Position numbers and translations under genes: made by a program. Below, in pieces: positions 1-55,932 of a DNA stretch of 64,000 bases. The notes under the pieces are model-generated. The model was not told the DNA's origin. It saw nothing but the letters and a program-made list of their open reading frames with translations, and did not search any database. The first letter of the stretch is position 1. Each line of letters starts with the position of its first letter. The stretch comes from Cyanidioschyzon merolae (lineage: Eukaryota): NCBI GenBank assembly GCA_000091205.1, contig AP006485.2. The stretch is one strand, 5' to 3'.

Positions 1-1266
1 TTCGCACGTCCCAAAAACAAATGGTTTCATCGAACGATCCCGAGGCCAAAACATTACCCTGGGGATTAAAGTTGCAGCAGAAGACATAATTGGAGTGTCC
101 TTCGAAACGGTGCACGGCGACGCCCCGCTCCACATCCCAGAGCCGCAGCGTGCGATCATCGGACGCGGAGGCGAGCCAGCGCGACAGGCTCGCCGAACGA
201 CTCGCCCCGCTGCCAGCTGCTGCTGCTGCGGACGCTGCACCAGCCCAGGCTACGTCGCTGATGCCTTGCGCGTGTCCCTCGAGAACGCCCACTAGTCTGC
301 CATCTGCGACTGACCATAGCCGAACCGTCTTGTCTGCAGAAGAAGACGCCAACAGACGACCGTCAGGAGAGAACTTCACAGAGGAGATGGCCTTTCGGTG
401 ACCCTCGAGCGTGTACTGCAACACGAACTGCAAGTCAGGCGAGGTCTCCTGCTCTTTGCGAGCGCTTCCAGCAAACTCGTGCACAGGCGCACAGGTGCCC
501 TCACAGCACTCTGGTCCTCGCTCTACGCCGCTGGACATGATGCGGATTCTTGCAGTCACCGCCCCAGCTCACGGTTGCTTTCGAGAGCACCCAACCGTCT
601 CAATCAGAACGCTACCGCGCTACAGGCTGCTGCTCGGCCGGTGAACCGAAGCACCGCACCAGAAGACGTACAGCAGCAGCAGCAGCAGCAACTACTATTA
701 TCGACTACCAACCAATCAACCAACCACCAGCTGCTGGGCGTCCACAGTTCTTCGACACAGCGCGGACCTGTGGCGCTTGTTAAATAAAGTCCCTGTCAAC
801 GTTAGAAGCGTTCCCCTCGAAAGCCGCCTCTGGAATGATATGCAACGACGTCGTGTTGCCGTCGTATGGCGCCCTGTGAGGCGCGCACGGATATGTGTGC
901 AACGCATTGATCCGTGACGCGCACGCACGCACGCATGCGTGCGTGTATGCGTGCGTGCGCGATGTTGCCGCGTTGCCGCGTTGCCGCCGCCGCCGTCGTT
1001 GTCGGTGCCACGCGATGTGTGACACCGATCCGGGTAGCCCGTTCGGCATGCAGCCGATGGCGAATACGCCGTCGTTGTCTACCCCGCGAGCACCCAATGC
1101 TCTATGTGATCAGTGACACGATAAATGCGCTACGACCCTGACAGGTGTATATATCTATCGATGGACAGGCGCCTCTTGGTCTTGTTTGACCGACTTTGTG
1201 CTATCGGCTGCAGCTTCTCGTTGTGCACTTCGAGCATCAGAGGGTGCCTCACAACGTAGGTTCGCC

Positions 1267-1848
1267 TCAGCTTCGCGGGTCTCTGCTCTTCAGCACCACC
1301 CATCGTCCGATACTCATGGCGGTGTTTAAGTCTCTGTTCAAGAATTTCATAGGTTTATTGCCGCTGGGTGGTTTCAGCAATGCAAGGATTCCTAGTGGTC
1401 GCACGCTATGCGCTATTAGAGTCTCGTCGACGTCCTGTCGGGGAAACATCTTTTCTCGACTATCCCCCTTCTTCTTCTTCTCTTCAATGGTCATGAATCA
1501 TGGATAGTATGGAGGAAAGGAAAGCAGCTCTATCCCGATAGATTCGGCAAAAGCCTGGACGCATGGGGAATGGTGAGATGCAACGTTGTCCGGTAGAAGG
1601 ACGCCGCCATTCGTCAGATGATTCTTCAGTGATTCGATAACGTGGTTGGTGCTCTTGTATGAGCCTTCTCTACGACCCCAAGCTGAAGCCGCCAAATGAA
1701 TCCACTGCAGCTGGAACAGATGATGGTGTCCTCGTTCTCTTCGAATTCGATCCTGAATTCCACGGACGCCCTCTATGCCAGTACGCGTGAAAGCTCCGAC
1801 AATTTCGTCTGAAAAAAAAAAGTCCCTTGCACTCAGAAAAGGATTCAA
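1267..1848 (-). pseudogene. C-terminal fragment of a TnpB/Fanzor-like RuvC nuclease (copy 1). ORFs 1498-1848 and 1267-1494 are in the same frame, separated by one TGA.
   Basis: Minus-strand translation reads ...GIEGVRGIQDRIRR... (RuvC-II-like E followed by GVRG), then AFAESIGIELLSFPPYYP (matches the TnpB 'YKAEE-G-I-x-V-x-V-x-P-x-Y-TS' block), then an in-frame TGA at 1498-1500, then ...KPMKFLNRDLNTAMSIGRW (RuvC-III-like 'RD-N-A-x-NI'). DNA and protein homology to copy 2 (16025-16300) continues down to about 1200. It has no RuvC-I/N-terminal half and has a deletion where copy 2 keeps a Cys pair, so it is a decayed fragment. Confidence 0.6.
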
Positions 1849-2658
1849 AATCCTTGTGCATCATACCAATCGCTGAGTTCCAGGAACGAATTCGTTACTT
1901 TTTCGGTAGAAAATTGCTATGCATGAACTGGAACTATTTTTGCGAATGTATACCGCTGTTTTCAGGACAACCCGAACAAGCCATTAAGCAACAGAGACGC
2001 CTCTGGTGGCTAGGATCATTGCGTTTGCTTTCCATAGGGTCATCAACGCGCTTTTTTCTACCACAGTCCATAAGCAATCTCTAAATATATCGGGTTTTGG
2101 CACGGAATGCATATGCTTCCTTCTTTCAATATGTATGAACCATCTGAGTTCTAACGTATGACTGACCTGAAGGACGCATGCAATGCTCCCCGCACTTTTC
2201 AGTAAAGAATCTCTACCCTACATTCAATTCGTCTACGATATATGCAAAAAATGCCTAGTGATTCCGACCTCCCGCTACATACCGCGAAAACGCATTCCAA
2301 GAAATTCAGCAAGGGTGCAACACAATTGAGTTGAAAGACTATAAGGTGCAACGGGTGCACGCCCGGATACCCAGCGCCGCGGCACGGCCGATGCCTTACG
2401 TTGAGGCATTGCCTGCTGCGCAGTGCAACCTTATAGTTCGAGACTTCTGGTACTAGCTTTTTGCAGAAACTTGTCTGGGATACCATACACAAACAGATAA
2501 ACTTGGGACACGATTGCACCCGGCTGCGCGTCGTGCAGGAGCTCGAAAACGTGGTTGCAACGCCACCGCACGCTGAACCTGCGGAGCGTTCTTGGCGAAC
2601 AGGACGCGACTGGGAGTCCCATTTACTGTTGGCTGGATCAACGTGACTCACGCTTATC

Positions 2659-3612
2659 ATGAGCGCTCAAGAAGCGGTGCAACGACCGCTTCCTAACTAT
2701 CTGCAGTTCGTTTTCGGCGGACTGGCAGGCATGGGTGCGACGCTTCTGGTGCAGCCGTTCGACGTCGTGAAAACACGCATGCAGTTGACGCAATCAGTCC
2801 AAGGCGCTCAGGCTCCAGGTCCGCTGTACGTGCTCCGCGCGATTGTTGTCCAGGAGGGCGCCTCAAAACTCTATGCGGGCTTATCAGCGGGGCTGTTCCG
2901 CCAGATCACTTACACGACGACGCGTCTCGGGGTATACGGTGTTCTTCTCGAAGAACTCACCCGTATTCGAAAAGCCCAGCAGGCGAGCTCGGCTCACGAC
3001 GGCGAGTCCCAGCGGCAGGGCGTTGCACTGCCCTTCAGCTGGAAAGCTGGCGCTGGACTCACCGCTGGTACTATTGGAGCATTGGTCGGCACGCCTGCGG
3101 AGGTGGCGCTCATTCGGATGATGGCAGACGGACGACTGCCCCCAGAGCGACGACGAAACTATCGGTCTGTCTTCGATGCCCTGATTCGCATCGTACGCGA
3201 AGAAGGCATTATGACACTGTGGCGGGGAGCTTTGCCGACGGTAGGGCGCGCAGCGCTGCTCAATATGGCGCAACTCGGTACGTATTCCCAGGCGAAGGAG
3301 ATGATTTTGAGCACTGGGCTCGTTGGGGATCATCTCGGAACCCATGTCTTGGCATCGACGTGTAGCGGCTTTGCAGCTACGTGTATTTCCTTGCCTCTCG
3401 ATAACGCTAAGACGAAGCTGCAGCATATGCGGGATCGTGAGTACGCCGGAATGCTGGATGCGCTGTTGAAGACTTCACGTTCTGAGGGCATTCCTGCGCT
3501 TTGGAGGGGGTTCATGCCCTACTTTTTGCGTTTAACACCGCACACCATTGGAGCATTCGTCTTACTCGAGCAGTTGAAGAAGCTCTATTTTACGTGGCGC
3601 CAAGTGTTGTAG
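2659..3612 (+). CDS. Mitochondrial 2-oxoglutarate/malate carrier-like protein (SLC25 family)
   Basis: 317 aa with three mitochondrial-carrier repeats: PFDVVKTRMQL; LYAGLSAGLFRQITYTTTRLGVY; GTPAEVALIRMMADGRLPPERRRNYRSVFDALIRIVREEGIMTLWRG; LPLDNAKTKLQ; GFMPYFLRLTPHTIGAFVLLEQ. These blocks are near-identical in pattern to animal/fungal OGC (SLC25A11). Confidence 0.85.
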   Translation: MSAQEAVQRPLPNYLQFVFGGLAGMGATLLVQPFDVVKTRMQLTQSVQGAQAPGPLYVLRAIVVQEGASKLYAGLSAGLFRQITYTTTRLGVYGVLLEELTRIRKAQQASSAHDGESQRQGVALPFSWKAGAGLTAGTIGALVGTPAEVALIRMMADGRLPPERRRNYRSVFDALIRIVREEGIMTLWRGALPTVGRAALLNMAQLGTYSQAKEMILSTGLVGDHLGTHVLASTCSGFAATCISLPLDNAKTKLQHMRDREYAGMLDALLKTSRSEGIPALWRGFMPYFLRLTPHTIGAFVLLEQLKKLYFTWRQVL

Positions 3613-12680: not shown

Positions 12681-12803
12681 TGCGGCAGGTGAGACTCGAA
12701 CTCACGACCTTAGGATAGCTTTCTTGGGCTCGTGTTATGAGACCTACGCGCTGTGGCACTGAAACTGAACTGGACAAAGTTTAACCAACTGCGCTACTGC
12801 CGC
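12681..12803 (-). tRNA. tRNA-Met (anticodon CAU, elongator-like) interrupted by two introns: about 30 nt in the D-loop and 19 nt at 37/38
   Basis: The reverse complement reads GCGGCAG-TA-GCGC-AGTTGGTTA[aactttgtccagttcagtttcagtgccaca]GCGC-G-TAGGT-CTCATA[acacgagcccaagaaagct]A-TCCTA-AGGTC-GTGAG-TTCGAGT-CTCAC-CTGCCGC-A. The 7-bp acceptor stem is fully paired (GCGGCAG/CTGCCGC). An A-box (TAGCGCAGTTGG) and B-box (GAGTTCGAGTCTC) are present. The anticodon stem TAGGT/TCCTA carries the usual 31-39 non-Watson-Crick pair of elongator tRNA-Met, and the anticodon loop is CTCATAA. With both insertions removed the mature length is 74 nt. Confidence 0.7.
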
Positions 12804-14750: not shown

Positions 14751-15875
14751 TCATGGATGAATAGTATCTTTGAATTCAAAGAACGAGTCATGCATGCGAA
14801 TGAAAGAGTACTCCTCGCATGACCCACAACACCAGTATAAATTAGGTTCTTTGTGAAAGATAGCGAACCCGGCGTGCATAAAACCTCGGAAAAACTCATC
14901 CAATTCTGGGATAGAGGCGAAACCCGCGTGCACTTCGATAAGGACTTGATTCACGTGCCGCAGCGCGTGCCAGGTTCTCAAGGCATATTGCTCTTCAGAG
15001 CTGAGTTCACGTTGGCTCCGTCCTTGGCGAAGGAGCTTGTCGGCTGCCCGGAACGCTCCCAAGAAAGAGGTGAACTCACCACCCTCGATATCGATCTTGA
15101 GCACCTCGACGACGTTTGGCAGCTCCAGGTGACCCAATCCAGACATGATCTCCGCCAGCGAATTGTTGCTCTCAGCCGGGCCAAGCGGCCGGCGAAAAAA
15201 ACGAACGCGTTCCAGAAAGCTCTCGGAGTGCATCGCAGATGGTGGCGATGATGTTGGGTCAAAGACGAAAAAATCGCAGTCCGGCAAGCGTTCATGAAGC
15301 TTCGTTTCGAAACTGAAATCGTCGTTGCTACCAAAACTGTAAACAATGCAGCGATACGGGAGCCTGAGCTGCTCACGAAACAGCCGTCCCCGGTTCAGGA
15401 TAGCAGGTGGGTCGCACACCCATTTGCCACCGTCTCCGTTGTTACCGATCCGTTCCTCTAAGGTACAGCCGATATCCGGTTCCCAGTTATTGTAGAAAAA
15501 AACCGACGGGTTTGGTTCGAGGGTAACGGTCTGGCGCTTTCGCTGACGTTGTGACCGAATCCTCCGTTGGGCCCAGAGCGCGTCCGACTCGCACCAGAAG
15601 CCGAGCGACTCTTTCAGTGCTCGCGTGTCCTTCGAAGTCACTGGTAGGGTCCGGTCCCAAATCTCCGTCAGGGTTTTCGCGTTGCGCAAAGAGCTCCCAC
15701 GACGAAGAGCCCTCGACACGGAGCGAACGCAGCTGTCATCCACGGCGGGAAGATCCGCGCGCTGGACACCACTAGAGCGTCCGTTGAGAACACTAGTAGC
15801 GCGGTATATTACGATAAGAGCATAAATAAGAAAAGTCAAAGCCCCTGAAGCGATGCACGGTTTTCGCCACGTCAT
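14751..15875 (-). CDS. Type II membrane protein with FkbM-family (Methyltransf_21) methyltransferase-like domain
   Basis: The ORF runs 14751-16115, but the first about 80 codons overlap the 3' end of the Fanzor-like gene on the same strand and use a non-ATG start, so I begin the call at the internal Met (MTWRKPCIASGALTFLIYALIVIY, a signal-anchor). The domain carries CIVYSFGSNDDFSFE ... NVVEVLKIDIEGGEFTSFLGAF ... VNQVLIEVHAG, which fits the FkbM/Methyltransf_21 pattern (LKiDvEGaE ... iE.H). Confidence 0.5.
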   Translation of the reverse strand: MTWRKPCIASGALTFLIYALIVIYRATSVLNGRSSGVQRADLPAVDDSCVRSVSRALRRGSSLRNAKTLTEIWDRTLPVTSKDTRALKESLGFWCESDALWAQRRIRSQRQRKRQTVTLEPNPSVFFYNNWEPDIGCTLEERIGNNGDGGKWVCDPPAILNRGRLFREQLRLPYRCIVYSFGSNDDFSFETKLHERLPDCDFFVFDPTSSPPSAMHSESFLERVRFFRRPLGPAESNNSLAEIMSGLGHLELPNVVEVLKIDIEGGEFTSFLGAFRAADKLLRQGRSQRELSSEEQYALRTWHALRHVNQVLIEVHAGFASIPELDEFFRGFMHAGFAIFHKEPNLYWCCGSCEEYSFIRMHDSFFEFKDTIHP

Positions 15876-16024
15876 GCCGGCCACTGAAAACAAACGTCTT
15901 TCAAAAGAAAAACGTTGCCGCCAACGGTGTACAGTAGTGACGGGAAACGCGCCGTAAGCAAATCGTCTCCAGCTGAGGTGCAGACGCATCCCAGTCTTTT
16001 TCGACCGTCCACCTACTACGTCTT

Positions 16025-18149
16025 TCATTTTCTTCTCATATAATTCCACTTTGAGAGGTCGCCCCACAGGTTCTCTCGTGTCGAATCTGGAGGTCTTTTC
16101 TCCAGCACCGCACATCTCCTGATATTGATAGCGACATTAAAGTCTCGGTTCACAAACTCCATGCGTTTCTTGCCATCTTTGGTTGTACTTACTAATACAA
16201 GTAGCCCACGAACGTTCGCCCTCCTTTCCATTTGCTCCTCCGTCAGCGGTCCGTACTTTGCTATTTCGTCGGGGCTCCTCTGGCACTTTTCCATCTCGAT
16301 CCTTTGAAGTGTACAACACAGTTCATGGTGTGTATACGATGTTCGGAACTCATCTACAGGTATTGTAACTAACCGGTCTGCACACCCCTTGTACGTTCTT
16401 GTCGTTGGAGCTGGTGTACACTCTTTTTCAGACGCCTAGCGCCCTGCTCCGTATGCTACTACCAGCCTTTGACTTTCATCCTCTTTGAAGGCACTCAGCT
16501 GATTGAAAAAGTTCGCGAACGCACACTGCTTGCCAACGTATAGATTCATACGCAATCGAGACCACCGGGGCTTTGTATACTCTTTCCACAGTGCCTCCCA
16601 ATGACCAACGCGAACTTTCATGAACTCCCGAAAAGCTTGAAAGTCGGCTCCGCGGCTCGTCACCTCGCCCAAAGCTTCCAGGTGCTCTTTCATTCCTGCA
16701 TTCCATGTCTCGATTTCCTTCCACGCATTCTTTATACCGGATTCTCGATAGTATCTCGCTCTCGAGAACCTCAAAAGACGCATGTCTTTCTGAATGAAGT
16801 TGCCGTCTGGACCATCTTCCGCACGCCTGGGTACAGCGATGGCTGTGACATTCGTATTCCCAGGGTCCGCGCCCACGACAAAGTCGTTATACTTCCTTTT
16901 CTGTGTGGCACAATCCGCCTCCTTCTCATCTTCATACCTCGTCACGTCAACGACAACGTCGTCATCCTGCACTTCCTGTGTCGCAGGATCCGTCTCTTTG
17001 TTTTCTTCATGCTTCGTCATGGGCGAAGCCGAAGGCTCGATAGGACGATACGCCCTCAAGCGCTTGCAGTCTACACAAATGGATACTCCATCGGTTTCGA
17101 TCATCCCCGTGAATACCCTCTGCTTGCTAATTTTGAGACGTTTGAAACTGAAGATATTCTTCCAGTACGTCTCCCGGTTTTCACCGGAGAATTCCTCCCT
17201 GCTGGCATTGAACTCGGGACTGATCTACTTCATGATGCCGTAGACGACTCTGGAGCCGATATAAACAAAATGGGGCTGTATGTTCCATAACGGGATGACG
17301 TAGAAGCGCTTCACCATTAGGAAAGCCCTCGGTCTCTCGCGCTCTTCATTTTTTCCTCACTCAGCTTCATCTCCGTCTTGCGTTCGAGTTTTCGGTCCAG
17401 AAACACGAAATACCGCAGAATGAGGCGATAGTGTCTTTCCATATCTTTTTTCAACTCTGGTACCTTTTCTGCTGGATTCGCCAGCCCAAAAACTGCATGG
17501 TGCTCTTGTATTGCCGCACGGATTACAGAAGCTTCATTCGTGCTCCTGCGTGGCGCCTTCTTGTCACCAAATTCGACCTCATCTTCATGCTTACGATCAT
17601 TCGTGATGCCTTGAAAATCGCACATTTTCCATCGCGAGATAGACCCGGGTAGAGTGCAAACACGGCGCGTATCATGAAACGTTCGAGGTTCACTGTCAAA
17701 TGGTGTTTCAGGTCCGTGATTTACTTCATCGCCCCGTATATGTAGATATTTCCGTCACCGCTGTATCGATTACCCTCGAAGGGGAATTCCACGAAGATTT
17801 CGTGGAGAGCATGCACTAGCTCATTTTCCCTCCGCATACCCCCTGTACCAAGCATCAGTTGACGAATAAACGTCTTGTCGAAAAACTCGTCCGAAACCTC
17901 GACTCTTTCCATGTGCGTCACATCGCGATGCATCGCCCTCACCAAATGCATTAGCCCTGACGATGCGTTTATAATACTTTTGGAGTACGAATCGACACAT
18001 GGTCTCTGATAGCGTCTCGCAAATTTTGCTTGTACTGATCCTTGGTATGTCAAAGAAGACCAGCTTTCACCACCATCTCGTCGCACAGGTGTCTTTTTCG
18101 CCGCCTTCGACGTTGGACCTCCCCTTTCGGTCCTTTTTCTTCTCTTCAT
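16025..18149 (-). mobile_element. TnpB/Fanzor-like RuvC nuclease gene (copy 2, near full-length, about 700 codons). It is split into ORFs 17721-18149, 17317-17625 and 16436-17104 + 16025-16294; the last two share a frame and are separated by a single TAG.
   Basis: Going N to C on the minus strand, the coding sequence shows: a basic NLS-like N-terminus (MKRRKRTERGGPTSKAAKKTPVRR); a RuvC-I-like [21 protein letters not shown] ('G-x-D-P-G', the Fanzor-typical variant of TnpB GIDLG) with Asp at about 16853; the Fanzor/TnpB bridge-helix pattern [26 protein letters not shown] (compare R..L.r.h.K.an.r.d..hK); an in-frame TAG at 16436-16438; RTYKGCADRLVTIPVDEFRTSYTHHELCC (compare TnpB LeYKAee.G..V..VdP.yTSq.C..C); and a RuvC-III-like MEFVNRDFNVAINIRRC with Asp at about 16143. 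The frame changes twice upstream (near 17105-17316 and 17626-17720), by frameshifts or short introns. The gene sits between AT-rich flanks. Confidence 0.65.
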
Positions 18150-19930
18150 TTTCTTCTGGACTCGGTACTGTTTTTTATTTTTTTCTGGCAGCCTGCGACA
18201 CTGGGCCTCCAGGATTATGTACTTGCTTTTTCATAACTTTGCTTTTTTAGTTTTTTTAAGAAGAAAGCCCTTTGAACGCTTCTGGTACACACTGCGAAAA
18301 AATTTGAGTAGACTTGTTTGAAGTTTGAAACACAAATGCAACCGAAAAACTGTACTTGGCTATGAACTCAACGAAAATACAACTTTTACATCAGAGCGAC
18401 ACGCTAGAGATCAAGATCACGTTTCCAGTCATCGTCGGCGATATGCGTCATGTCTCAAGCCTGTCTGATCTCCCAGCTGCGCTCGCTGTGCGCGATGCGT
18501 GCACCGCGCGAGACGCCTCACCGATCGATGAAGGACACGTGTCCGACACCCCGCCGTGGCACATGCGTGTTCGCATCGCACTGCAGCTGAAATAAAGTCT
18601 CGTAGATCGGAAACTCACGTGGAACGATCTCTTGCTATAGGCTATGTCGCTGATGCACATCGCAGTACGGACCTGACATACAAGGAGATGCAGGGGCCTG
18701 GCACGATTGCCCGCGATGCTTCTATCAAAGGCGTAGTCACTGTAGCACCTTACGCTTGTGCGAGTGAGGTATGCATCACCCTACTGAATAGGAGTTTCGT
18801 TCGTTTTATTGATCGTGAAAAAACTGTGTGCCGTAGTCTTCCCGACTACGGATATACGTTTATTCCCGTTTCTTGCAGTCCATTCCGCTCAGACGCTGGA
18901 ATGAGAAACTGGTTTGAATTGTGTTTCTATCCGGCGCCAGGCCAGCAAGTGTCGAGCAACCCACCGCAAATTCGTTCTGATCGATGGAATGTGCTTACGG
19001 CTCAATGATCCGAGAATTCACGACGAGTACCGACACCCGGGAAATCTGCCGCCATTGCGCACCAGCTCTGCGATTTCCACCAGTCACATCGCGTGCCTCA
19101 TCTCCGACATTCTGCTTTTCCGACGTTCCATTGTGCCCTGCGACTGCCGTGAGCGTTCGAAACAGCGCCCAAACCGCTGGATCGGGCGTAGCACAGAGAC
19201 CGACAGACATACCCCCTACTGGATTGGAGCCGGGAGCCATCGCTCACACGTAGCACTGCTCATTGCCGATCTCATCTGAATACTCCGTGACCACATTATA
19301 GTGATGGAAAGCGGCAACGTCTAAGGCCAGTGAAGAAGAACGTGCAACGAATAGGTCGCAAAACGTGATTCCCCGCAGCATGCGATGTTGGACGATTAGA
19401 CAATTCTCGGCGATGTATAAGTGACTACATAACCGAGTCGTAGCCAGGGCTAATAGTACCGACAGCCCCGCTGCTTTTTTTCTATGAACAGCAGTTTGCC
19501 CCCGTTTTGAATTATCCATATACAAATCTACCAAGTCTACCGAATAAAGTCTCATAAATTGAGACGGCAAAATGCCCCTGGTGGAAGAAACTTTCTCGTT
19601 GCAGTGCGAAATCGATCGTGCGCTGTTCAAGGTGCTGCAGCTACAAGTAGTAGCCTGCCATCTTCTTCGTTCACTCGTGTCGCTTCACCGCAATTTGTAT
19701 CAACCGTTCGAAAACCTCTCATCCAGCGGCTTCTTTGGAGGTACGTCATGGATATCATCCGGGCTGAAATACATGAAAGACGGGACGCTCATGTAGAGAG
19801 CTTTTGAAACTTGCTGTGGTCGGTGCAAGTCGTTCAAGGAACGGACTACGAGAGGGGTACCTCATACGTCTGCTGTCCGCACTATGTCTGGTCTGGACAA
19901 GTAAAGGCGTTTTGCTCCGAAGCCAGCCAG

Positions 19931-44202: not shown

Positions 44203-45212
44203 GAGCTGTTGACCCGTCCCCTACCCGAGAAAAGCCTCTGGGCGCTAATGCACTAGTCCGAGCAGCTCCAGCGTTGCGTCGCCCGTGTCGTTGCCCAGTT
44301 CGTTGAAGCCAACAGACCTGTTGCGGGCGTTCCAGCGATGATTGCATGGTGTCCATCGGTGGCGTTCGTAGCACTCACGGTTGACGTTCGCACAGAGCGG
44401 GAAGGTAAAGCCGCTCTGGGTCGATACGGCATCCGAAGTGGTGCTGTAGGCGGTATTGTGGAAGCTGGCGGTAGGATGGACACGTGACCGGTCGTATGAC
44501 CGAGCCATGAACTTCGACGGCAAGTAGGTGCAGTGGCTGGTAGAACTGAGGAGGTATGTTGCGTCACGACGTTCGCTTTATCTGATGCTGGCAGGAATCA
44601 CGCCGTTCGGGATCCCTGGTCTGTATACTCGTTGCGTCGATAAGAAAAACGGTGTTTCTAGAGTGCAACGCCGACACGTCCGGGAGCTTGCTTGCGCGAC
44701 AGCGCACGATACAGGGCAACTCGTAGGCCAAACGAGTCTTCTCGATAGATAGGCAGTAGACTGCTCTGGGCGGTACCATGCAGACACCCACGTATTTCGC
44801 GAACTGGCGAGAGCTCGAATACAGCACACGTCGAAGCTCTTCTACGAAAGCGACGTTCCCCGTAATTCCGAGTATCGCTCTTTACTGAACAAAGCACCTC
44901 TTTGACATTCTTGCTGGCGTCCTACGTAGAAAATGACAATTTCGTTGCGTCCATGGTGGTGTCAGCACATGCTTTGACGCTCTATTCGGAAGACAGAGCT
45001 CTAATCGACCTCACACGCTGTCGTTTCAAGCACGGAGCATGAGCGTCTCGACGCAAGGCGCTCCTAGTGCCGTGTGTGCAGCACAATGCACCACGAGAAG
45101 CGCACGGTGCTATGTATGGACGGCGCACGTGCGGAGCATCCAGAGCGCTGTGGCTACCCGGCGATGCACCAGAGTCTCGCTACCTCTCCATATATTGCGA
45201 GCAAACGCATCT

Positions 45213-45918
45213 GAGGCATTCCTTCGTACTATCGTTCATGTATATACTAAAGAATGTTTAAAATATCTATGAACATCCATGGGATACCTTCCGAGTGCCA
45301 TTCTGAATGGATATGAGGCATTCCTTCGTACTATCGTTCATGTATATACTAAAGAATGTTTAAAATATCTATGAACATCCATGGGATACCTTCCGAGTGC
45401 CATTCTGAATGGATATGAGGCATTCCTTCGTACTATCGTTCATGTATATACTAAAGAATGTTTAAAATATCTATGAACATCCATGGGATACCCTCCAAAT
45501 GCCATTCTGAATGGATATGAGGCATTCCTTCGTACTATCGTTCATGTATATACTGTAGAAAATGTTTAAAATATCTATGAACATCTATGGGATACCCTCC
45601 GAGTGCGATTCTGAATGGATATGAGGCATTCCTTCGTACTATCGTTCATGTATATACTAAAGAATGTTTAAAATATCTATGAACATCTATGGGATACCCT
45701 CCGAGTGCCATTCTGAATGGATATGAGGCATTCCTTCGTACTATCGTTCATGTATATACTAAAGAATGTTTAAAATATCTATGAACATCCATGGGATACC
45801 CTCCGAGTGCCATTCTGAATGGATATGAGGCATTCCTTCGTACTATCGTTCATGTGCATACTGTAGAAAATGTTTAAAATATCTATGAACATCTATGGGA
45901 TACCCTCCGAGTGCCATG
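45213..45918. repeat. AT-rich tandem array, 102-bp unit (one 108-bp variant), about 6.9 copies at over 95% identity
   Basis: The unit gaggcattccttcgtactatcgttcatgtatatactaaagaatgtttaaaatatctatgaacatccatgggataccttccgagtgccattctgaatggatat restarts at 45213, 45315, 45417, 45519, 45623, 45725 and 45827. The only variation is a tgtaga insertion in two units and a few point differences. The unit is roughly 37% GC in a GC-rich background. There is no ORF through the array. Confidence 0.95.
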
Positions 45919-46068
45919 CTGCCAACCTGCTGGTCAAGCGCAAGACGATCGCATCCACGCTCTAGTCGCAGTGCCGATCCGACGCTAGACAAGCAGCACG
46001 GTTTTTGTTGCTCGCAAGGAGCGAGCAGAAGCATTGATTCAGTTGGGGGATAGCTCTGGCGTCTGGAA

Positions 46069-54049: not shown

Positions 54050-55674
54050 TGCAGCGTTGGTAAGATGATTGGCGTTATTTGGAGCTCCACTGTTCCTGTG
54101 CCCAAGGCACACCGGCATGCGGTGCAAGGCCGTAGACCTGGGTACTCTGTACGATTCTGGGCACGCCAGTAGAAGCTGATCTATCAGCGATGTGACCCTT
54201 TGGAAGCCGACAGTTTCTCTGACAGATCCGTTCGCAACGAAGATACGGAATGCATTTTGCATCAGAGCGGCCGTCGTTATTCGCTCTGCGCATCTACGCT
54301 GCCTGGATCGCTAACTTTTTTGTGCCCCAGAGCATATATGAACACAGACATTCCAAGTCCTTCGGGATGCTTGATGCTCCCGATGCAGTTCGTGTCGCGT
54401 ACGCAGCAGAGGAGGTGTGTGGGGCGCTAGTGGCGTCCTGCGAGCGTCGCCAGGCACAACTTTAGCCTCTGTTCTTGAGATACAGACACCTGTCACGCAA
54501 TATTCCTGCCATGCTAGCACCAGTAAATGAGCTCGTAGACAAGTGCAGCGCCGAGACGCCACTCATGCTCTCTGCTGGCTCGCTCCAGCTTCCCGTATCC
54601 AGCACCACTTCGGATCTCGATTCATCGGGTCTGGATAGGATGCCAACGCATGAGTTCTGGCACAGTCGTGCTTTCGCCTCCCATTGAGACGAGATGTACG
54701 GCGACCAGACACGATTCATGCGATGAACGACGTGCATTCGTTCGGCAGCCGCCGGGCAGCGTAGCCGAGGCCCACGCCAAAAGCAAAATCAGTCGCTGGT
54801 GTGGTATCTTTTAGGCTGATGGCGACACCTTACGTCCCGTGGACACGGCCTTGGGCATCGACACGTTCCAGGAACCTGTCGTGGACGCACATGTGGTGTC
54901 TAGTGCCCGGAAACGCCTCACCAGAGCGTCAGGGCATCGTCCAATGTCTTCCGCTCGGAATCCCTCGACATCGTGGATGCAGCGTATTGCCGCAGGGCGC
55001 TTGTCCGCGACACATGGAACCTCGATGTGCTTCGATTCCGATTATCATGGAATTTTGCGGTCTCCGAGTTGAACCGAATGCAAGCTTTCTCAGCAATCAG
55101 AGCAATGAACGTCATGGATGCTTGTTGAAACATGCGTTCAGCTTGCCCTGGACCCGCATGTTGCGCAACGTGCCTCTCATGGACACGCTGGTCGACTCAT
55201 TTGGTGGTATCGTTCCGCTGCATCCAACAAGGCATCCTCGAGACGCCCGTCGACGTGAGCACACAGCACTCCTGGGACGCACTGTTTGCACCTTCGACCC
55301 TGCTGCAGGGCATGCGGTGCACTCATGTCGGCTGGTCCGATAGCGTGCATGTATCCACGCTCATGCGACCACGAAGAGCGCTGACTTCCACCTCACTTCG
55401 ATGCAAGGGATACCTGCACTACTCCCGAACGCGTATCAGCGATGCTCTTCGGGTCATCGATACCATAAGAGGAAACGTGAACGACGGCAATGGCGCTGTT
55501 GCTTCTCTCAGTGGTGCTCGTATACGCCATGGATCAACCAAGCCTCCAATGCATTGTAGACGGGTACACTGCAGATGCTAGACAGCGCCAGCATCGTCTG
55601 GATCGGATTTCGATTGCGCTTACCTCCCGTAAACGTACTTGGAATCTCGCGAACGCAATCTTCTTACACAAATG

Positions 55675-55932
55675 ATCACGACTGCTTGTATACAAGGATA
55701 GCTTTCATTCTTGAAAAGAAAAGCCTAGCGGTACGCAGTCAGTGAGCGCAATACGCATATCATGAAGACTGCTTGTAGAAAAGGTCATGTTCCATTATGG
55801 AAAAGAAAAGCATAGCGTTACACGGCCAGCGAGCGCAATACACATATCATCACGACTGCTTGTATACAAGGTCTGCTTCCATTCTTGAAAAGAAAAGCAT
55901 AGCGTTATATGGCCAGCGAGCGCAATACACTT
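55675..55932. repeat. 87-bp tandem repeat x3, intergenic and upstream of the 56166 gene
   Basis: Units at 55675-55761, 55762-55848 and 55849-~55932 share ...actgcttgtatacaagg...cattcttgaaaagaaaagcatagcg...gccagcgagcgcaatacacatatc at roughly 85-90% identity. Confidence 0.85.

Follow-up and report, generated by a model that had tools for sequence, protein, structure and literature searches.

A constrained 3' terminal module of the Fanzor1 element CMe-1A in Cyanidioschyzon merolae is a candidate ωRNA scaffold

Fanzor elements of the red alga Cyanidioschyzon merolae were described by Bao & Jurka (2013, Mob DNA 4:12, PMC3627910), whose Additional file 2 contains the consensus of CMe-1A, the family to which the locus reported here belongs. 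CMe-1A has ~150 copies, which are ~80% identical to a 3,169-bp consensus, and encodes a Fanzor1 protein of 734 aa that is still intact in some copies. It has no terminal inverted repeats, its target duplications were not determined, and it was not assigned to a transposon class. Its 5' 635 bp are identical to another repeat, TE-N2_CMe, which has ~70 copies and lacks the 3' tail of CMe-1A (PMC3627910). In SpuFz1, a Fanzor1 of Spizellomyces punctatus, a 75-nt omega-RNA (ωRNA) scaffold extends from the stop codon to the right end of the element, a 14-15-nt guide is read from the flank, and “ghost” loci without an open reading frame (ORF) retain the ωRNA region; the ωRNA of GtFz1 overlaps 17 codons of its gene (PMC10432273). 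In Fanzor1 ωRNAs, one to three stem-loops stand between a 7-bp SL1 and the guide (PMC11423790). The element has therefore been known since 2013 and ωRNAs at the 3' end of Fanzor genes since 2023, and the finding described here was to be expected on both counts. Within a 64,000-nt stretch of C. merolae contig AP006485.2 (the window), a degenerate CMe-1A copy lies on the minus strand. The protein encoded by positions 2659-3612 of the window is identical to BAM79081.1/XP_005535367.1 of C. merolae 10D. The last ~110 nt of the CMe-1A copy (15991-15881) very likely contain the element's right end together with a structured module under constraint, and by analogy with characterized systems this module is probably the ωRNA scaffold of the family.

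The right end was located by comparison with related copies. A metagenome scan returned at least 391 related stretches, from which 80 loci, representing 55 distinct genomic places, were fetched. Of the paralogues aligned to the window, 85 copies cover position 16000, 66 cover 15925, 35 cover 15900 and none covers 15875; the alignments that reach furthest stop at 15881-15895, and none passes 15881. Nucleotide diversity climbs from 0.13-0.45 within the module to ~0.7, the random level, a few bases past the end, and the flanks beyond it are unrelated among copies. The initial annotation of this stretch, made without database searches, had proposed a transposon boundary between about 15880 and 16025, downstream of a Fanzor-like gene, and this was right, because similarity among >50 independent copies ends sharply at 15881, the lower edge of that interval. 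The published consensus ends within the terminal hairpin (...GAAAGGCG), and the alignments indicate a correction of the CMe-1A right end by 14 nt outward, which completes the hairpin.

The protein family is placed in Fanzor1 by profile comparison. A HMMER scan found 1,392 relatives, and a profile built from 49 diverse ones and searched against PDB sequences matched PpFz1 (9cf0, E = 1.4e-19), SpuFz1 (8gkh, E = 6.3e-12), and GtFz1 (9cer, E = 9.4e-6) over the RuvC and TNB regions. The RuvC residues D314 (GADPG), E486 (VDEFRT), and D555 (NRDFNAA) are invariant across the 49 relatives, and all three motifs are still legible in the window copy. These matches indicate a true Fanzor1, as the term “Fanzor-like” in the initial annotation had anticipated. 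The assignment depends on the profile search, as Pfam alone was insufficient: Pfam scans of window fragments, close homologues and distant representatives gave no significant TnpB domain, and Cas12f1-like_TNB remained under the threshold (E = 0.26 and 0.0023). The C4 zinc ribbon between [TS][TS] and RD, as defined by Bao & Jurka (PMC3627910), is not intact; only HH..C...C remains (THHELGCTLQRVEMEKCQ), and GLLALVSTT takes the place of the second CxxC, in the family consensus as in the window. Loss of the second CxxC is clade-wide (residues ~490-545 of relative P0015; window 16330-16190). A degenerate TNB domain is no ground for excluding the family from Fanzor1, because CMe-1A was filed there by the authors of the family. 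A structural route was abandoned: an AlphaFold2 model made from a shallow alignment of 17 sequences had a pLDDT of 36 and was not used for a fold search.

The window copy of the nuclease gene is a pseudogene. Its frame shifts near 17700 and 17300, as seen in three-frame translation, an in-frame TAG stands at 16436-16438, and relative to the family (alignment of 85 copies) one T is missing between 16070 and 16069; the ORF therefore carries at least two frame changes, a premature stop and the 1-nt deletion. This deletion bears on where the gene ends. The initial annotation had put the nuclease stop at 16025 and regarded about 15880-16025 as noncoding. A TGA does occur at 16027-16025, where the short minus-strand ORF 16294..16025 terminates, but the stop of the family lies ~70 nt further 3', at 15956-15954, and the stop at 16025 is secondary because the deletion at 16069/16070 shifts the frame. 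The intact relatives P0001, P0010, and P0014 and the family consensus continue as ...ENFVGQPLKVELYEKKLEAVVGGRSKKTGRRLHVSWRRFV up to their stop, in the frame that had been set aside as a spurious extension of the neighboring ORF. Close metagenome relatives also pass the equivalent point (...ENFVGQPLKVELYEKKLEAVVGGRS.KAGRRLHV...), in the frame of the first ~70 residues of that long ORF. The C terminus of the consensus ORF reads ...RRLHVSWRRFV, with a TAG or TAA stop within GTCTAGGGCG, and the published 734-aa CMe-1A consensus ends at a TAG equivalent to 15956-15954. Since the family reads past 16025, positions 16025-15957 are former nuclease coding sequence. Most of 15957-16110 was thus once coding, and the ancestrally noncoding part is only ~73 nt long (15953-15881).

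The 3' terminal module covers the last ~11 ancestral codons and the stop and extends to the right end, with 59-75 nt between the family stop and the end of the element. Over the ORF, diversity is 0.27 at third codon positions versus 0.14 at first and 0.10 at second positions, and this roughly twofold excess indicates that the family diversified under protein selection. In the last 11 codons, where the module begins, the corresponding values are 0.24/0.19/0.24, codon periodicity is lost, and GGCGTCTGCAC is nearly invariant; upstream of the module, a depression of synonymous-site diversity was not significant (Mann-Whitney p = 0.2-0.3). Stem-loop I has a 7-9-bp stem in which GGCGTCT (15987-15982 region) pairs with AGACGYY (15968-15960), and it competes with a short stem around the stop, H1 (AGAC/GTCT). 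Stem-loop II is followed by a linker, whose core, TACTGTACAC, has a diversity of 0.13, as low as at the first two codon positions and half the third-position value (0.27). The terminal hairpin, stem-loop III, is 14-20 bp long in well-kept copies, and its 3' arm ends where family similarity ends. Two subfamilies form this hairpin from different sequences and even in different registers (CGTCGTTCGA-CTT-TCGAACGGCG versus CAACGTTTTTC-TTTY-GAAAGGCGTTG).

Several tests suggest that the predicted fold is maintained, above all in stem-loop III. RNAalifold applied to a plain MAFFT alignment of 51 tails recovered only 4 pairs, because indels misalign the terminal hairpin, and it was replaced by per-copy folding, arm swapping and a covariance model. 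In 49 distinct copies, the terminal hairpin folds with -20.4 kcal/mol on the sense strand versus -14.6 on the antisense strand, the sense strand being lower in 44 (Wilcoxon p = 9e-9), and 169 of 886 pairs (19%) are G·U. Cognate arms fold better than exchanged ones (-20.6 versus -17.2; permutation p = 1e-4; p = 0.015 for the outer arms alone). A covariance model of the tail, built from nine copies, matches the tail in every locus and has one strong match in the 64-kb window (15878-15976, minus strand, 33.7 bits, E about 1e-6), so that the tail signal is more than chance. In the alignment fitted to the model, 83.4% of cells are paired, every pair of the terminal hairpin has changes on both sides, and the covariation score, 0.166, exceeds the 0.05-0.09 obtained when partners are slid. 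Both-side changes affect 25 pairs and 75 cells, compared with 14.5±2.2 and 30.7±4.8 in shuffles (0 of 500 reach the observed values); these figures are supportive rather than proof, as they come from related copies and from an alignment made to fit the structure. In stem-loop I, 82.7% of cells are paired versus 42-59% for slid partners; the stop-stem, stem II and a closing CAGT/ACTG helix together reach 81.7% versus 32-58%, and H1 reaches 80.7%, with no covariation. The outer four pairs of stem-loop II are kept in 38-51 of 51 copies, and its two inner pairs are unpaired in about half. Folded as RNA, well-kept copies have z scores of -3.2 to -4.9; the window copy reaches -1.9 and its antisense strand -0.7. 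The conserved structure that the initial annotation had thought worth seeking thus appears as sense-strand stem-loops with compensatory changes in the terminal hairpin, while covariation is weak in stem-loop I and absent from stem-loop II.

The tail module is also separable from the ORF. In L020:983-1089 and L081:1042-1146, a tail of ~107 nt stands alone, with no Fanzor ORF upstream and with unrelated DNA around it. These solo tails correspond to window 15991-15889 and begin at GGAAGCGTCTGCACG, 34 nt ahead of the stop. About 29 nt downstream of a solo tail lies the left end of a subfamily-A CMe-1A copy, i.e., a tail-spacer-head tandem junction; such an arrangement recalls the ghost loci of S. 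punctatus, or it could have been left behind by tandem or circular intermediates. A second Fanzor-like fragment in the window, named copy 1 in the initial annotation and suggested there as a structural comparator, cannot serve as such. It can be aligned with the main family and with its own relatives only as far as ~1165, equivalent to ~15985, just where the module begins; the tail is lacking, and there is no covariance-model match at copy 1. Copy 1 is not a further copy of CMe-1A but a member of another repeat family of chimeric structure, whose DDE_3 (Tc1/mariner-like) transposase fragment (2069-1506) precedes the Fanzor C-terminal fragment (1492-1165); relatives with ~69-71% identity lie in L064, L066, L068, L012, L011, and L051. 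Beyond copy 1, a weak match to the tail model (862-963, plus strand, 19.7 bits, E = 0.003) lies in GC-rich GCGTGC/GCATGC low-complexity sequence. It is probably due to chance; a similar (GCGTGCAT)n sequence stands next to the right end in L079 and L055, and the match could instead reflect a target preference.

In position, size and layout, the CMe-1A module matches Fanzor1 ωRNA scaffolds: the final ~110 nt begin within the ancestral ORF, take in its stop at 15956-15954 and run to the right end at 15881, much as the initial annotation had predicted for an ωRNA. If the analogy holds, the module would be copied into sense-strand RNA that forms the 3' end of the Fanzor transcript and extends past it. 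The RNA would fold into stem-loop I across the stop, stem-loop II, a linker for protein contact (CCACUACUGUACAC) and stem-loop III, which would close at the last base, and the next ~15-20 nt of flank (here 15880-15861) would be read through as the guide. The CMe-1A Fanzor protein would bind this RNA and cut DNA matching the guide beside a target-adjacent motif (TAM). Transcription, nuclease binding, guide use and a TAM are steps that we infer from the characterized systems. It is doubtful that the window copy is still functional, and any remaining activity of its eroded module would have to be in trans, together with intact copies.

Several observations weigh against an ωRNA. None of the 55 sampled loci has a fully intact ORF. 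CMe-1A has no terminal inverted repeats, unlike SpuFz1, and no TAM could be derived from the left-end flanks examined. Runs of T5 and T4 within the hairpin argue against transcription by RNA polymerase III. The initial annotation had suggested aligning the region with characterized ωRNA scaffolds, and local alignment detected no similarity to those of SpuFz1 or GtFz1 (shuffle p = 0.9 and 0.5); this is not unexpected, because scaffolds diverge fast. Rfam 15 gave no match at the gathering score or at E values up to 10, except for a chance ctRNA match. Covariation beyond shuffles is not seen in the stop-stem, stem II or the CAGT/ACTG helix, it is weak in stem-loop I (4 of 500 shuffles reach the observed score), and in stem-loop III it was counted in the structure-fitted alignment described above. 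Finally, DNA parameters predict the same hairpins (z = -2.9 to -3.8), and thermodynamics therefore cannot separate an RNA from top-strand single-stranded DNA.

This last point leads to the strongest alternative, that the module, above all its terminal hairpin, is a DNA-level transposition signal and not, or not only, an RNA scaffold. The hairpin could be presented by top-strand single-stranded DNA to an HUH/Rep-like or other enzyme acting in trans or could mark the end of 3'-primed or rolling-circle copying. CMe-1A lacks terminal inverted repeats and detectable target-site duplications and has no assigned class (PMC3627910), the hairpin is located at the extreme end of the element, many 5'-truncated copies keep the 3' end, and a solo tail exists. 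The hairpins are significant with DNA energy parameters too, and the strand asymmetry is equally compatible with a specific strand of single-stranded DNA. However, no transposase is encoded in or known for CMe-1A, and G·T pairs, at 19%, destabilize a DNA hairpin far more than its RNA counterpart: the minimum free energy of the same copy is about -18 kcal/mol as DNA versus -36 as RNA. Furthermore, TE-N2_CMe reached ~70 copies without the tail (PMC3627910), and every characterized Fanzor1 has an ωRNA at the equivalent position. A signal of this kind is thus considered unlikely as the explanation of the module, and the two roles are not exclusive, as IS200/IS605 elements illustrate.

A module with both roles, an ωRNA scaffold that is also the sole cis-signal for mobility, would account for the solo tails, for the retention of the tail in many 5'-truncated copies, for the tail-29 nt-head tandem junctions and for the exchangeable 5' heads (see below). 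The ~150 copies of this Fanzor-only element could then have been spread by the Fanzor ribonucleoprotein itself or by copying primed at the 3' end. We give this combination little credence at present; if it were true, an RNA-guided nuclease would drive transposition in a eukaryote, beyond the role of a homing helper.

An equally improbable reading is that the tail is an element of the Fanzor mRNA 3' untranslated region, acting in 3'-end formation or stability and without guide function. The tail does follow the stop codon directly, and in a scan for bacterial promoters and terminators the hairpin with its T-rich run (15916-15893) scores as terminator-like. Eukaryotic nuclear genes do not use intrinsic terminators, however, so this score is not meaningful, and the T-rich tail is limited to one subfamily (GTTTGTTTTCAG), other copies ending in GTTGNTGGTG. 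Moreover, the module begins inside the ORF, where codon periodicity is lost, and persists without any ORF. That the tail has no function, being conserved through recent shared ancestry with incidental hairpins, is the least credible view: the copies are decaying (to ~80% identity with the consensus), covariation in stems I and II does not exceed that of shuffles and the fold of the window copy is marginal (z = -1.9), but the same copies are twice as diverse at synonymous sites as in the linker (0.13), pairing of the terminal hairpin survives different sequences and registers among subfamilies, and the limit of conservation coincides with the end of a helix. An ωRNA scaffold remains the favored interpretation of the module, the parts of which are listed in Table 1 with the other features of the locus.

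Table 1. Coordinates of the CMe-1A copy, its candidate ωRNA module and associated features in the window
Feature	Coordinates	Strand	Basis or sequence
Whole degenerate CMe-1A copy	15881..18939	-	Core 18470-15895 corresponds to consensus 671-3169, 83-87% identity
Former C-terminal nuclease coding sequence, now out of frame	15957..16069	-	Alignment to 85 copies and intact proteins
Apparent stop (TGA) of the frameshifted frame	16025..16027	-	
Ancestral Fanzor stop	15954..15956	-	TAG/TAA in the family, TAC here; family alignment, consensus ORF
3' terminal module, candidate ωRNA scaffold	15881..15991	-	Common to all copies; covariance-model match 15878-15976
Stem-loop I	15960..15990	-	5' arm 15990-15982 GATGCGTCT (family GAGGCGTCT), 3' arm 15968-15960 AGACGATTT
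Stem-loop II	15939..15953	-	GGCGCG-TTT-CCCGTC; family GGCGGG-TTT-CTCGCC; 5-6 bp
Linker, near-invariant, noncoding	15927..15940	-	TCACTACTGTACAC; family CCACTACTGTACAC
Stem-loop III, long terminal hairpin	15881..15927	-	Inner stem 15916-15893; 3' arm closes on the last base
Right end of the element	15881 (±5 nt)	-	Limit of paralogue alignments; published consensus stops at the equivalent of 15895
Flank, would-be guide	15861..15880	-	CCGGCATGACGTGGCGAAAA; includes methyltransferase ATG 15875-15873; by analogy with SpuFz1
Methyltransf_22 gene	14751..15875	-	Pfam E = 9e-33; likely start from element boundary and hydrophobic segment
“Copy 1,” Fanzor C-terminal fragment of a chimeric family	1165..1492	-	Without tail module

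The flagged stretch 15880-16025 does lie between the nuclease remnant and a same-strand downstream gene, as first annotated, and this gene encodes a Methyltransf_22 protein. The long minus-strand ORF 16115..14751 overlaps the short ORF 16294..16025 in a different frame, and its Methyltransf_22 domain begins only at residue 166 (Pfam, E = 9e-33). Its first ~80 residues are not methyltransferase; the DNA encoding them is homologous to the 3' end of >50 Fanzor copies that have unrelated downstream flanks. The initial annotation was thus correct in treating this N-terminal part as foreign to the methyltransferase, but the part it called spurious consists of former Fanzor coding sequence (16069-15957) and the noncoding tail of the element. 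The ORF 14751..16115 is a chance fusion of a transposon tail with a host gene. The methyltransferase likely starts at ATG 15875, because the element boundary, with the right end only 5 nt ahead of this ATG, and a hydrophobic segment directly after M81 both point there; neither start variant was found among the recorded called proteins. The open frame of the Fanzor tail continues without a stop into the host gene here (14751-16115, minus strand) and likewise enters a carboxyltransferase-like gene at L078:541-2808. Long tail-host fusion ORFs of this kind may mislead gene callers.

Outside the module, the window copy resembles CMe-1A over most of its length. Consensus positions 671-3169 align with window 18470 to 15895, with 83.2% identity over positions 671-2193 and 87.2% over 2117-3169. 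The 5' 670 bp of the consensus are not shared, and the head of the window copy (18939-18470), a subfamily-A head, is not of the published type. CMe-1A cores bear exchangeable 5' heads of ~500-700 bp (18470-18939 in the window; L025, L022, L064, L083, L067, L021, and L023). The published head, that of TE-N2_CMe, sits on subfamily B, and the window has another, whose 5' end falls ~200 nt short of that in L051, L020, L084, and L081. Many copies are 5' truncated with the 3' end kept, starting at the equivalents of 16824-16826 or 16888 (L039-L041, L066, L035/L036, L047, L059, L061, L070, and L071), and several of these are head-to-head inverted partial copies that meet near 16888. L023 represents the corresponding genomic place in a different strain. 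Its divergence from the window is 1-2% on the 3' side of ~16970 but 15-30% on the 5' side. The 5' two thirds of the element have therefore been replaced by another subfamily, a sign of gene conversion or ectopic recombination. At the breakpoint there is a 75-nt tandem repeat (window 16875-17019), which encodes an acidic repeat and varies in copy number among copies. As a test of constraint after insertion, L023 was uninformative, its orthologous divergence being only 1-2% and its 5' two thirds being replaced.

The termini of the copies provide further detail. Their 3' ends read ...GGTG(YGTG) or ...CAGKGG, and their 5' ends read GGTTAGGC or (CG)ATGACAAAAC; inverted repeats and target duplications were sought in the element copies, and none were seen. 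At eight independent subfamily-B loci, a pyrimidine-rich stretch resembling TTTCTYTYC precedes the left end; subfamily-A left ends are too few for comparison. The stretch lies directly 5' of the published left end (CGATGACAAAACG) in L025, L048, L022, L064, L083, L067, L021, and L023, and it could be a target or TAM-like motif or an unrecognized part of the element. Two known types of transposon terminus were considered and rejected: a Helitron end (5'-TC...CTRR-3' with a subterminal hairpin), as the ends differ and the hairpin is terminal, and an IS200/IS605-type end, as no matching left-end hairpin and no Rep/Y1 gene were found. No Replitron or HUH elements were reported for red algae in the literature checked.

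Three further features of the window are unrelated to the element. A sequence on the minus strand (12681-12803) matches the Rfam tRNA family over 123 nt with 48.4 bits and was not called by ARAGORN; it may be an intron-containing or otherwise unusual tRNA gene, and such genes are known in C. merolae. A 102-nt tandem array with 6.9 copies and 95% matches (45212-45921) lies in the one kilobase of the window that is AT-rich (GC 0.435); a second array, with 3.1 copies of an 87-nt unit, is located at 55665-55930.

What is added here to the published element is a candidate scaffold of ~110 nt with coordinates, a structure model and a covariance model, for a red-algal Fanzor1 from a thermoacidophile. 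In the literature searched, the supplements of Saito et al. included, a C. merolae ωRNA is not mentioned. Because C. merolae is genetically tractable and has a tiny genome, testing the prediction would cost little. The separability of the tail also bears on the means by which CMe-1A, a Fanzor-only element that has neither inverted repeats nor a transposase, multiplies.

Comparison with described systems places the locus closest to the published CMe-1A, with which the window copy shares the host organism, a length of ~3 kb, ~80% identity to the consensus, the lack of inverted repeats and a modular 5' part; it differs in being a pseudogene and in bearing a head other than the 635-bp TE-N2-like one. 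The published account predates ωRNA and contains no RNA or 3' structure. SpuFz1 (Saito et al. 2023, PDB 8GKH) is, like CMe-1A, a single-ORF element with tens of copies, and its ghost loci are comparable with the solo tails in L020/L081. Unlike CMe-1A, SpuFz1 has 30-nt inverted repeats and a CA/CATA motif at its left end, and the CMe-1A module differs from the SpuFz1 scaffold in beginning ~34 nt inside the ORF and in having a much longer final hairpin. GtFz1 (Guillardia theta, PDB 9CER) is likewise an algal Fanzor1, its ωRNA overlaps C-terminal codons (17, versus ~11 in CMe-1A), and several stem-loops precede the guide, as in the CMe-1A module; its scaffold is ~140 nt long with four stem-loops and has no sequence similarity to the CMe-1A module. 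The ωRNA of ISDra2 and other IS200/IS605 TnpB systems also overlaps the 3' end of the nuclease gene and reaches the right end. These elements are bacterial and have a Y1 TnpA, present or in trans, and a defined left-end TAM, features for which CMe-1A yielded no counterpart. Nevertheless, the IS200/IS605 right-end hairpin doubles as the single-stranded DNA signal of TnpA and provides a precedent for a double role of the kind considered for the CMe-1A module.

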